Source: Escherichia coli
GTDB taxonomy: Bacteria; Pseudomonadota; Gammaproteobacteria; Enterobacterales; Enterobacteriaceae
NCBI RefSeq assembly: GCF_051903065.1
Contig: NZ_CP178440.1
DNA length: 64,000 nt
Direction: 5' to 3' (one strand)
Shown: piece by piece, positions 20,301 to 23,300 of the stretch
Numbering within the stretch: the stretch's first letter is position 1
How the letters are laid out: each line of letters opens with the position of its first letter
Made by a program: the position numbers

Positions 20301-23300
20301 CTTCGGGCCAGGCTGAACGATATGGAGCATCGCTGTCGCTTTGATTCCGATGTGCTTGTTGAACGCCTGACACGCCAGACGCTGTATCGCGCCAATCGCC
20401 TGTTTATGGAGGCGTATACCGAAATTCTGGAACTGGATTCCTGCTTCAAAGATTGAGAAGGAGACGAGAATGTACGGAACATGCGAAACGCTCTGCCGGG
20501 AGCTGGCAGCGCAGTATCCGGGAGACGCGCCGCTGATGCTGGTTGTCTGGTCCCCGGAAGAGATCCAGGCCCTCGCTGACGGAATGGATATTTCCCTGTC
20601 CGATCATGAAATCAGGACCGTCCTGGCGCGCCTGGAGGACATCCCGGAAGACCAGCGAATTGAGTCCGGTATTTCTTCCGCCGCGGCGATGGAGATTATC
20701 AGCAACGTGAGCGAAAACCGCCAGGTGACCGTTCCGGCTGAACTGCTGGCGTCCCTGATTCAGACCGCTGAACAGGCATTGTGGAAACGTGAATGGGCCG
20801 CCCGGGATCATGGCCTCGCCGTCCCGGAATGCGTCACCCGCCGTCAGGCGGTGGTTAATCAGGCCCGCACCCTGCTGAAAAACAACACACGCGAAAACGA
20901 CTGATGTTATCGCCGCCTGCGGGCGGCGATTCAGGGAGACCATGAATCATGAACGAAACGCTGAATGCACTGATTTGTCGCCACGCCCGTAACCTGCTGC
21001 TGGCGCAGGGCTGGCCGGAAGAGACGGATGTTGACCAGCGAAATCCGAACCATCCGGGCTGGATCAGCATTTACGTGCGGCTGGATGCGCCCCGGCTGGC
21101 GACATTACTCGTTAACCGCCACGATGGCGTGCTGCCGCCGCACCTGGCCTCCGCCATTCAGAAACTGACCGGAACCGGGGCGGAGCTGGTACTGTCCGGC
21201 AGTCAGTGGCAGTCGCTGCCGGTACTTCCGGCAGACGGAACGCAGGTGTCTTTCCCGTATGCCGGTGAGTGGCTGGCAGAGGACGAAATCAGGGCAGTTC
21301 TTGATGCGGTACGCGATGCAGTACGCTGTGTCAGTTACCAGGTGGCAGAAGATACGCGGCGTATCCGGGCGGCGCTGACCACAACCGGTCAGACGTTACT
21401 GACCCGCCAGACGCGCCGCTTTCGCCTGGTTGTGAAGGAAAGCGATCACCCCTGCTGGCTCGATGAGGACGACGAAAACCTGCCCGTGGTGCTCGATGCC
21501 ATCCTGAACCGGGGCGCACGTTTTTCGTCGGTGGAAATGTATCTGGTCAGTGAGTGTATTGAGCATATCCTGTCCAGTGGGCTGGCCTGCGATGTGCTGC
21601 GTATACCGGATGAACCGCCCCGCCGCTGGTTTGACCGTGGTGTTCTGCGGGAGGTGGTCCGGGAAGCCCGGACCGAAATCCGCAGCATGGCGGATGCCCT
21701 GGCAAAAATCCGGAAATGATGACACTGGCGGGGTAAATCCCCGCCTTTTTCCTGCCGGTCCCCGGACAGAGCACAAAGGAAGTCGCCGCCGGCTCCGCTT
21801 TACCCGGCCATGCAGAGCATGGCCTTGTGGTTTTTCAGTTATGTGGCCTCAGCGTCGTGTGCGGGCTGTGCCGTGCCTCCATCTTAGCCGGGCTGGCGTT
21901 GATGCAAGGGTACGCTTCGCCGCTGCGGTCACCCGGTCCCTCCTTCCCGTCTGCCGTGATTTTCCGGTCGTTCGCCCGCTCAGGTTTCGCGGCCTCACCC
22001 TGCAACTCCCGCCAGCCGTGTGCGTCAGGCTGCGGCTTCCCTTGCGCCCCTGCATCCCCGCCTTATCGCCCGGCTTTTATGGAGGCACGGCACCGCCCGG
22101 TGTCGCGGAATATGTGAACAACGGAGGAAATCCCATGCAGTATGCGAAACCTGTCACTCTGAACGTTGAAGAGTGCGACCGTCTCTCCTTTCTGCCTTAC
22201 CTGTTTGGCAACGATTTTCTGTATGCCGAGGCGTATGTGTACGCGCTGGCGCAAAAAATGATGCCGGAATATCAGGGCGGCTTCTGGCACTTCATCCGCC
22301 TGCCGGACGGTGGCGGTTACATGATGCCGGATGGCGACCGTTTCCACATGGTGAACGGTGCAAACTGGTTTGACCGTACCGTGAGTGCTGATGCCGCAGG
22401 CATCATCCTGACCTCCCTTGTGATTAACCGCCAGTTGTGGCTGTACCACGACAGCGGGGATGCAGGACTGACCCAGCTTTACCGGATGCGCGATGCGCAG
22501 TTGTGGCGTCACATCGAATTTCACCCCGAATGCAACGCGATTTACGCGGCTCTGGACTGATTAACGGACGGGGCGGCAATGCCGCCCCTGTAAAGGAGAC
22601 GAGAACATGTACTGTACTGTTAAAGAAATCATCCGCGATGTACTGGATACAGACGTGCCGGACAGTGAATGTGTTTTTGCCGTGGTGCTGACCCGTGGGG
22701 ATGTGCGTCACATAGCCCAGGACTGGAACCTGTCAGACGATGAGCTGGAAACCGTCATGCAGCGGCTGGACGATGCCTTTGAGCATGGTGCGGATGTCAG
22801 CGTTGTTCACGACGTTGTTCGTGAACTGATGGAAGAAAAGCGCGCCAGCCGTCATGTGACAGTCCCGGCGGTGATGCTGGAAAAAGTGATGGCGCTGGCA
22901 GGCAGTGAAATGAAGCGCCTGTATGCCGTCGGGAGTGAGAACGGGGGCGACGGTGACGCATTCGTCAGGGAGGAACGCGAAGCAATGGACGTTGTGTTAC
23001 AGGCGCTGGACGGGGAGACGATGTCATGAATATCAGCACAGAAACCCGCGAAATTCTGCGTAATTACAGGGCCGTGATTAATGCGCGGCGTCGTGAAATG
23101 GGGCAGAAACCGCTCACCACCGCGCAGATTGTTGATGAAATCTGCGATTTTGTGGCGAATCAGCAGGCGGTTTTCCTGGGCGGTCACTACATCTTACAGG
23201 GCAGCAGAAACAGGTGATACAGGGGCAGGCGGTGGAGGCCGCCTGTCAGCCCGCGCGAAAACCCCTGGCAGGCTGACGCCTGCCGGAAGGGAAGCGGGCC

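Follow-up and report, generated by a model that had tools for sequence, protein, structure and literature searches.

Introduction

Why are klcA and a DNA methylase gene of an F-like resistance plasmid each preceded by a long tract rich in guanine and cytosine (GC)? The question is raised by a 64,000-nucleotide (nt) stretch of Escherichia coli DNA (NCBI RefSeq assembly GCF_051903065.1, contig NZ_CP178440.1), here called the window, which represents an F-like (IncFII/FIC-type) resistance plasmid with its leading region included. The initial annotation described the two tracts (21777-22134 before klcA and 19216-19550 before the methylase gene) as long untranslated leaders with many short inverted repeats and no convincing coding frame, held that they were not copies of the A/B/C repeats, and proposed that they may form a second family of single-strand-active regulatory elements. 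Our analysis indicates that the klcA tract is very probably a class 2, and the methylase tract a class 3, single-stranded DNA (ssDNA) promoter, that is, a hairpin on the transferred (T) strand that drives the operon downstream. Both tracts match elements published in 2025-2026 and are in that sense already known; what is new here is the compensatory covariation of class 2 and its conserved TTGCAT-N15-TAnnnT arrangement with a bubble at the -10 box.

The reference system is the plasmid pESBL, for which Wen et al. (NAR, December 2025; PMC12672017) removed the donor cells and sequenced RNA from transconjugants. Six leading-region operons were strongly induced, each of them located after a large predicted hairpin: three hairpins are of the ssi/Frpo type (class 1), two that resemble each other stand before klcA and ardA (class 2), and one distinct hairpin precedes the methylase M.EcoGIX (class 3). 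Time-course RNA sequencing revealed that the induction is transient and specific to transconjugants, the transcript starts mapped by 5' rapid amplification of cDNA ends (5' RACE) agree with the hairpin-promoter predictions, and classes 2 and 3 are conserved in F (PMC12672017). Class 1 corresponds to Frpo (ssiD) of F and ssi1-3 of ColIb-P9 (Masai and Arai, 1997; Couturier et al., 2023, PMC9849209). The names ssp2 and ssp3 come from a January 2026 preprint (bioRxiv 10.64898/2026.01.09.698686), which reports that F ssp2, upstream of yfgB, halts synthesis of the complementary strand where its stem ends, that this stall is relieved by UvrD, and that transfer into restricting hosts falls when ssp2 is deleted.

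Results

Both tracts are homologous to characterised hairpin promoters

As a basis for the class assignments, we compared the tracts with the elements of F and pESBL. The klcA tract (358 bp, 64.8% GC) is 95.5% identical to F ssp2, 97.8% identical to the pESBL klcA hairpin and 96% identical to the pESBL ardA copy (whole 358 bp), and its left edge at 21777 is the point where homology to the ardA copy begins. The methylase tract (335 bp, 66.0% GC) is 95.8% identical to F and 96.4% identical to the hairpin upstream of pESBL M.EcoGIX over 335 bp, with its left edge at 19216 where homology to F and pESBL begins. Since the leading region as a whole has 53.6% GC, both tracts are indeed GC-rich, and the coordinates first assigned to them hold. 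Moreover, the proposal of regulatory elements that act on the single strand and are separate from the Frpo-like repeats was borne out, given their 96-98% identity to elements demonstrated experimentally (PMC12672017).

The genes downstream fit these assignments. The klcA gene (22135-22560, plus strand, ATG at 22135, Shine-Dalgarno sequence GGAGG at 22124-22128) matches the Pfam family Antirestrict and its product is 98% identical to F YfgB, while the methylase gene (19551-20234, plus strand, ATG at 19551) matches the Pfam family N6_N4_Mtase and its product has 91% amino-acid identity to pESBL M.EcoGIX. The klcA tract is therefore a leading-region element, and the anti-restriction gene immediately downstream of it has the T strand as its template; position before klcA, strand relative to the origin of transfer (oriT) and large hairpin are the same as for class 2/ssp2 in pESBL and F, and nothing material differs in this copy. 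The methylase tract has the fold of class 3/ssp3 in pESBL and F and likewise stands directly 5' of an M.EcoGIX-type methylase gene on the correct strand, although its left flank here is a parC-like region next to parM, in place of the terminator hairpin and DUF1281 operon seen in F and pESBL.

The T strand was assigned from the nick site. The minus strand from 39995 to 39960 reads TTTGCGTGGGGTGT/GGTGCTTTTGGTGGTGAGAACCACC (the slash marks the nick), and the nick sequence at 39962-39982, which we take to be an oriT of the F/R100 type (F-type nic), adjoins traM, the 5' untranslated region (UTR) of traJ, and FinP. A nick in the minus strand identifies that strand as the T strand and therefore as the template for every plus-strand gene of the leading region; it enters 5'-first from 39971 toward lower coordinates.

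Folding the T strand of each tract as ssDNA, in comparison with 100 shuffles, yielded a large stable stem-loop for the klcA tract (-107 kcal/mol; z = -5.2) and a large stem-loop for the methylase tract (-99 kcal/mol; z = -6.2), and 0 of 100 shuffles was as good in either case, which confirms that the tracts are structured. The inverted repeats first noted are present as well, but rather than many short ones, each tract is dominated by a single long imperfect repeat (a hairpin of about 300 nt; arms 21862-21915 with 22044-22100, and 19270-19304 with 19455-19492) accompanied by small side hairpins. We also scanned the leading region independently of homology, using a GC-corrected sliding fold (300-nt windows, 17-41 kb). 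Both tracts were among the seven most over-stable windows. Three Frpo-like repeats head the ranking (about -4 standard deviations, sd); a palindromic terminator comes next, and then the tracts themselves, at -2.3 sd for the methylase gene and -2.2 sd for klcA.

Relative to F and pESBL, the tracts are 96-98% conserved, compared to 94-100% at the first two codon positions of the flanking genes and 75-95% at third codon positions of the adjacent genes (75-79% in the methylase gene). Conservation above the level of third codon positions is consistent with purifying selection on the tracts. Identity to characterised elements, strand, fold, covariation and conserved boxes are results of the present analysis, whereas promoter activity, transcript starts and roadblock come from the literature by homology; thus, the UvrD-relieved stall of F ssp2 may, by homology, extend to the klcA element.

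The class 2 stem covaries and carries conserved putative promoter boxes

A linear sigma-70 scan detected no promoter in either tract; candidate -35 and -10 boxes emerged only when the T strand was scanned under relaxed criteria. By our own assignment, both boxes are rebuilt within the stem of the klcA element, the non-template arm of which reads CCCTTGCATC-AACGCCA-GCCCGGC-TAAGAT-GGAGGCACGGCAC. In the predicted fold the -35 box TTGCAT (21907-21902) is fully paired, and the central AAG of the -10 box TAAGAT (21886-21881) faces AAA in a 3 x 3 bubble. The spacer is 15 nt long on the non-template arm and 19 nt long on the template arm because the latter contains a 4-nt bulge; it carries an 'AA' variant that is mismatched in the stem, at a place where F has CC. 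Counting 7 nt from the -10 box places the putative transcript start at about 22087, with a predicted 5' UTR of about 48 nt. Both tracts appear to be mostly promoter hairpin and not the long untranslated leaders that had been proposed. In duplex form the plus strand reads CTGCAT-N19-TTTTAT, in which the -10 equivalent has no A at the second position; the lack of this key A would be a simple reason for the promoter to be dead in duplex DNA. The apical region of the element is G-rich on the T strand and was considered as a candidate G-quadruplex; by eye it holds three close G3 runs only and no canonical motif, and the candidate was rejected.

Next, we examined whether the stem is maintained by compensatory change. 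A first covariation test with eight near-identical class 2 copies was uninformative because 20 stem pairs never vary. Using the pKpQIL copy (68% identity) as a second query supplied the diversity, and the resulting comparison set of 12 sequences covers Klebsiella, Citrobacter, Enterobacter and further E. coli plasmids, down to 68% identity. In this set, 14 of the 42 basal stem pairs showed compensatory double changes and 93% of the cells were paired; none of 500 shuffles reached any of the covariation measures, and sliding the partner by 1-3 columns reduced pairing to about 35%. The boxes are kept as TTGCAT-N15-TA[ACT][AG][AG]T across the 12 variants, with T1, A2 and T6 of the -10 box invariant. 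Quantification of G.T wobbles in the stem revealed 12 that are valid on the T strand vs. 5 on the other strand, and the T strand of the klcA tract is about 11 kcal/mol more stable than the plus strand.

Three relatives differ in how the stem is mismatched. The R805a variant (segment 3636-3869) has a perfect 46-bp stem without a bubble; in the variant from an S. sonnei plasmid (Shigella/E. coli type; segment 3642-3880) the spacer asymmetry is flipped, the non-template arm having the longer spacer (20 nt, vs. 15 nt on the template arm); and in pKpQIL (Klebsiella type; segment 11359-11602) the bubble is enlarged to 8 x 8 with the template strand CGACACGACAG conserved. These variants could differ in promoter strength or roadblock behaviour. 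In pKpQIL there is also a 679-bp gap before klcA, in which a partial left-arm duplicate of class 2 (segment 11024-11236) and two copies of the left-end module described below lie ahead of the complete element. Both arms of the class 2 -10 region were also searched for in 100,044 species-representative genomes; three loci came up, an unrelated AT-rich chance match among them, and the comparison set was not usefully broadened. The plasmid studied here has one class 2 copy only, because it has no ardA.

The class 3 stem is conserved and its promoter boxes are less clear

The long stem of class 3 is GC-rich, and when three Klebsiella-type copies were added its 27 pairs were 98% paired, 6 of them with compensatory changes. 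The side hairpin on the template arm (19493-19521) shows a compensatory A-T to G-C change in F, and the Klebsiella types keep this hairpin with another sequence, 3 pairs being changed on both sides. At the base of the T-strand fold, the left end of the element forms a helix with the complement of the methylase ribosome-binding site. The distribution of conservation is opposite in the two classes, such that the apical domain is the most conserved part in class 3 and the least conserved in class 2.

Among possible boxes, GACACT (19289-19284), which lies opposite TGTTCA and has no -35 box, is the best class 3 -10 candidate, and transcription from it would start at about 19485. TAAAAA (19240-19235) is a second candidate, and as a -10 box it would start transcription inside the ribosome-binding site; TACACT in an apical loop and TTGACG in an apical hairpin were considered as well. 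For none of the four hexamers is there a convincing partner box at a distance of 15-20 nt, and the Klebsiella types do not conserve TTGACG.

A short left-end module is common to the two classes

Although the tracts had been proposed to form one second family, blastn found no better-than-chance similarity between them, and they are better described as two unrelated families that have in common only a module of about 25 nt at the left end. The module pattern, GTCGCCG(N0-2)GGCTCC(G/T)C...TTTAC, has 2 matches in the window where 0 are expected; it is followed by a small GC hairpin in both classes (19243-19261 and 21806-21824), and it is retained in the diverged class 2 variants of Klebsiella, Citrobacter and Enterobacter plasmids. 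The module is a new item, without mention in the text examined of the ssp2/ssp3 papers.

The Shine-Dalgarno sequence of the gene that follows about 320 nt further on is complementary to the CTCC(G/T) core of the module. When this pairing was evaluated in plus-sense RNA, the class 3 probability was 1.0 in F and pESBL and 0.11 in the window, and the class 2 probability ranged from 0 to 0.23 except for one Citrobacter copy (0.74). This outcome is mixed, and we keep an anti-ribosome-binding-site role as a low-probability reading. There is a slight chance that the module is a functional part undescribed in the literature consulted. If so, it could close the whole element, and on read-through RNA from the established duplex plasmid it could occlude the ribosome-binding site, a translational lock on top of the transcriptional off-state. 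Another option is that a host factor working on the strand as it enters recognises, or stalls at, the module in both classes.

Weighing the ssDNA promoter reading against its alternatives

Several points count against the assignment of both tracts as ssDNA promoters. Activity in this particular plasmid is something we infer from 96-98% identity, and the class 2 boxes and the start near 22087 are our own, putative assignments. Stem covariation alone cannot tell pairing at the DNA level from pairing at the RNA level. For class 3, the fold is equally stable on both strands, so that the fold alone cannot name the active strand; the covariation is essentially one split between E. coli-type and Klebsiella-type plasmids; and the relaxed T-strand scan found no -35/-10 pair scoring at least 8 of 12.

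The alternative that survives best, even though we consider it improbable, is that the main role lies in DNA replication, by ssi priming or as a programmed barrier to the complementary strand, with transcription secondary. In keeping with this, ssp2 is a structural roadblock independent of transcription (10.64898/2026.01.09.698686), Frpo transcripts can prime DNA synthesis (PMC12672017; 10.64898/2026.01.09.698686), and the polymerase would enter the class 2 stem at its base, which is a perfect 15-bp helix rich in GC. However, ssp3 has no roadblock activity, and ssp3 substituted for ssp2 rescues transfer into several restricting hosts (10.64898/2026.01.09.698686), indicating that much of the benefit comes from expressing the downstream gene. 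In addition, every diverged class 2 relative that we fetched lies directly 5' of an anti-restriction gene, klcA or ardA.

Much less probable again is that the tracts are transcribed 5' leaders, acting as a thermosensor, an attenuator or a translational-control RNA and served by a conventional promoter upstream. Plus-sense RNA does fold the inverted repeats (z = -4.8 and -2.4), the class 3 RNA of F and pESBL pairs its Shine-Dalgarno sequence with the left end as given above, and covariation is neutral between RNA and DNA. Nevertheless, sigma-70 scans found no duplex promoter upstream of klcA or the methylase gene, and the strong terminator immediately before the klcA tract (21727-21745) insulates the element from upstream transcription; in F and pESBL another terminator precedes the methylase tract. 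Against a leader also stand the published starts, which fit hairpin promoters and belong to a transient, transconjugant-specific induction, the greater stability of the class 2 T strand, and a search of Rfam 15 at the gathering score, which gave six matches in the window and none in 19216-19550 or 21777-22134.

It is hardly credible that the tracts are diverged copies of the class 1 Frpo/ssi elements, the A/B/C repeats: these have the same genomic role, a similar hairpin architecture, and the same strand and region, but when either tract was compared with the three Frpo-homologous copies by blastn (7-nt word), the matches were of 12-25 nt and no better than chance, neither tract is similar in sequence to Frpo1 or Frpo2, and Wen et al. 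also report no sequence homology of classes 2 and 3 to class 1 (PMC12672017), in agreement with the view that the tracts are no copies of these repeats. Similarly, a coding function for small proteins deserves next to no credence, for although open reading frames (ORFs) of 56-97 codons occur on both strands of the tracts, a gene of about 101 codons is annotated over the class 3 tract in F, pESBL, R805a and one Shigella plasmid, and one E. coli plasmid has a minus-strand ORF annotated over class 2, no ORF inside either tract matches Pfam, indels of 1-5 nt between plasmids break every reading frame (single-nucleotide indels among F, pESBL and the window inside the annotated ORF, and indels of 4-5 nt in class 2), the N-terminal third of the F ORF has no counterpart in the window, where a different sequence lies upstream of 19216, and the substitutions are paired across the stem without a codon pattern. 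The absence of a convincing coding frame, as first reported, was thus upheld, and the 336-codon frame at 21550-22560 is an accident, an open frame that runs into klcA after 57 codons out of frame in the upstream gene and 138 codons of tract.

Public annotations place 'hypothetical protein' genes over the class 3 hairpin and, in one record, over the class 2 hairpin (Table 1). These are probably spurious calls, since single-nucleotide indels between plasmids break the frames.

Gene neighbourhood and further features of the leading region

The region examined is widespread, with matches to 19000-22600 in more than 5000 plasmid records (identity of 90% or higher, 99.9% for the best). The gene order is parM/parR on the minus strand followed on the plus strand by the DNA methylase gene, small ORFs, a DUF1380 gene, a 256-amino-acid (aa) ORF, klcA and DUF1380, and further on by ssb, psiB, hok/sok and DUF932; a transglycosylase gene on the minus strand comes next, and then traM, traJ (with FinP) and the tra operon. 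Feature coordinates are given in Table 1.

Three Frpo-type (class 1) copies are located at 23400-24041, 26709-27352 and 37188-37831, with 83-97% identity to the Frpo1/Frpo2 regions of F; together with the klcA and methylase tracts, the leading region would hold five single-strand promoter hairpins. Just downstream of the first Frpo-type copy there is an Rfam match to AS-pc01, the antisense RNA of pHK01 (24162-24264, minus strand), which ends in a terminator-like hairpin (24185-24165).

The leading region contains an insertion of about 4 kb that lies between the ssb and psiB areas and is bracketed by two identical 300-bp direct repeats (28847-29146 and 33177-33476), each overlapping a 240-codon open frame. 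The repeats are candidate copies of IS26, a reading that comes from a 704-bp, 234-codon IS26 transposase annotated elsewhere in a related record. Between parM and the class 3 element, 19038-19215 has 35% GC, is T/G-rich and contains short repeated motifs, and it resembles a centromere and promoter region of the parC type.

A perfect 26-bp palindrome (ATGATAATATAAGTAAAGCCCCGAAAA/TTTTCGGGGC...) at 39073-39128 begins where the DUF932 gene stops, with the convergent transglycosylase gene on its other side; 39060-39380 folded as ssDNA has z = -9, and the palindrome looks like a bidirectional terminator. The over-stable window at 39050-39349 in the sliding fold was accordingly rejected as a further promoter hairpin, being this palindrome after a gene stop.

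Table 1. Positions of the two promoter elements, their parts and related features (window coordinates unless a segment is named).
Feature	Position	Strand	Basis or remark
Class 2 (ssp2-type) ssDNA promoter element, 5' of klcA	21777-22134	minus	Identity to F ssp2 and pESBL hairpins; T-strand fold
Left-end module in class 2 (AAGTCGCCGCCGGCTCCGCTTTAC)	21779-21803		Common to class 3
Small hairpin GGCCATGC/GCATGGCC	21806-21824		T-rich run after the hairpin on the plus strand, terminator-like look
Class 2 non-template arm	21862-21915	minus	-35/-10 boxes, then perfect 15-bp helix
Class 2 apical region	21916-22043	minus	Weakly structured, G-rich on T strand, poorly conserved between plasmid groups
Class 2 template arm	22044-22100	minus	4-nt bulge; predicted transcript start about 22087
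Intrinsic terminator-like hairpin and T run	21727-21745	plus	Ends the methylase operon
Class 2-driven operon (putative)	22135-23217	plus	klcA/ardB, DUF1380 protein, 63-aa ORF
Class 3 (ssp3-type) ssDNA promoter element, upstream of methylase operon	19216-19550	minus	Identity to F and pESBL; fold
Left-end module in class 3 (ATGTCGCCGGGCTCCTCTTTTTAC)	19217-19241		Common to class 2; pairs with complement of methylase Shine-Dalgarno region (19532-19546) in T-strand fold
Small GC side hairpin, GCGCCG/CGGCGC, non-template side	19243-19261	minus	Absent from Klebsiella-type variants
Class 3 non-template arm of long stem	19270-19304	minus	Holds invariant GACACT (19289-19284), candidate -10 box
Class 3 apical multi-hairpin domain	19305-19454	minus	Sequence more conserved than in the rest of the element
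Class 3 template arm of long stem	19455-19492	minus	Pairs with 19270-19304
Template-arm side hairpin, GGGCACC/GGTGCCC	19493-19521	minus	Would also form in mRNA 5' UTR
Class 3-driven operon (putative)	19551-21719	plus	N6/N4 DNA methylase, 73-aa ORF, DUF1380 protein, 256-aa ORF
oriT nick region	39962-39982	minus	Minus strand ...GCGTGGGGTGT/GGTGCTTTTGG; nick (slash) between 39972 and 39971
Annotated hypothetical genes over hairpins (segment coordinates)	F 4785-5090; pESBL 4395-4706; S. sonnei plasmid 951-1256; R805a 948-1253; further record 1538-1735

Discussion

The reading of the tracts as class 2 and class 3 ssDNA promoters implies the following course of events. On the entering minus strand, each tract would fold into its large imperfect hairpin, which host RNA polymerase would read as a promoter, with the -35 and -10 boxes on a non-template arm and the opposite arm as template; for class 2 on the T strand, the 5' arm (22100-22044) would be the template and the 3' arm (21915-21862) the non-template strand. 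Transcription would run from the loop toward the base of the hairpin and out into the downstream operon, which is that of klcA for class 2, and since such a promoter works on a single strand, the recipient would make KlcA and the methylase ahead of complementary-strand synthesis. That synthesis would then remove the hairpin and switch the promoter off.

The principle is alike in the class 1 Frpo/ssi elements, in which a T-strand hairpin rebuilds the -35 and -10 boxes, is active only when single-stranded and drives leading-region genes; class 1 differs in that its repeats are about 640 bp long, have stronger folds (about 4 sd vs. 2.2 sd) and show no detectable sequence similarity to the tracts. 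Early genes of coliphage N4 are also transcribed from hairpin promoters on single-stranded DNA, read by the virion RNA polymerase, and the likeness is that an extruded hairpin of one DNA strand serves as promoter during the entry of foreign DNA. The N4 hairpins differ in being small (stems of 5-7 bp), in depending on a phage-encoded polymerase and in having no sigma-70 boxes.

For class 2, the asymmetry of the spacer (15 vs. 19 nt) would leave the duplex form without a usable -10 box. The elements are present in well over 5000 sequenced plasmids and are routinely mislabelled as hypothetical proteins in annotations, and a reading of raw sequence has here recovered a real and recently validated class of element. 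As experiments of 2025-2026 established, hairpins of this kind enable F-like and I-type resistance plasmids to make a protective methylase and an anti-restriction protein only minutes after entering a cell, while the DNA is still single-stranded, and they are part of what lets these plasmids cross between strains with restriction systems.

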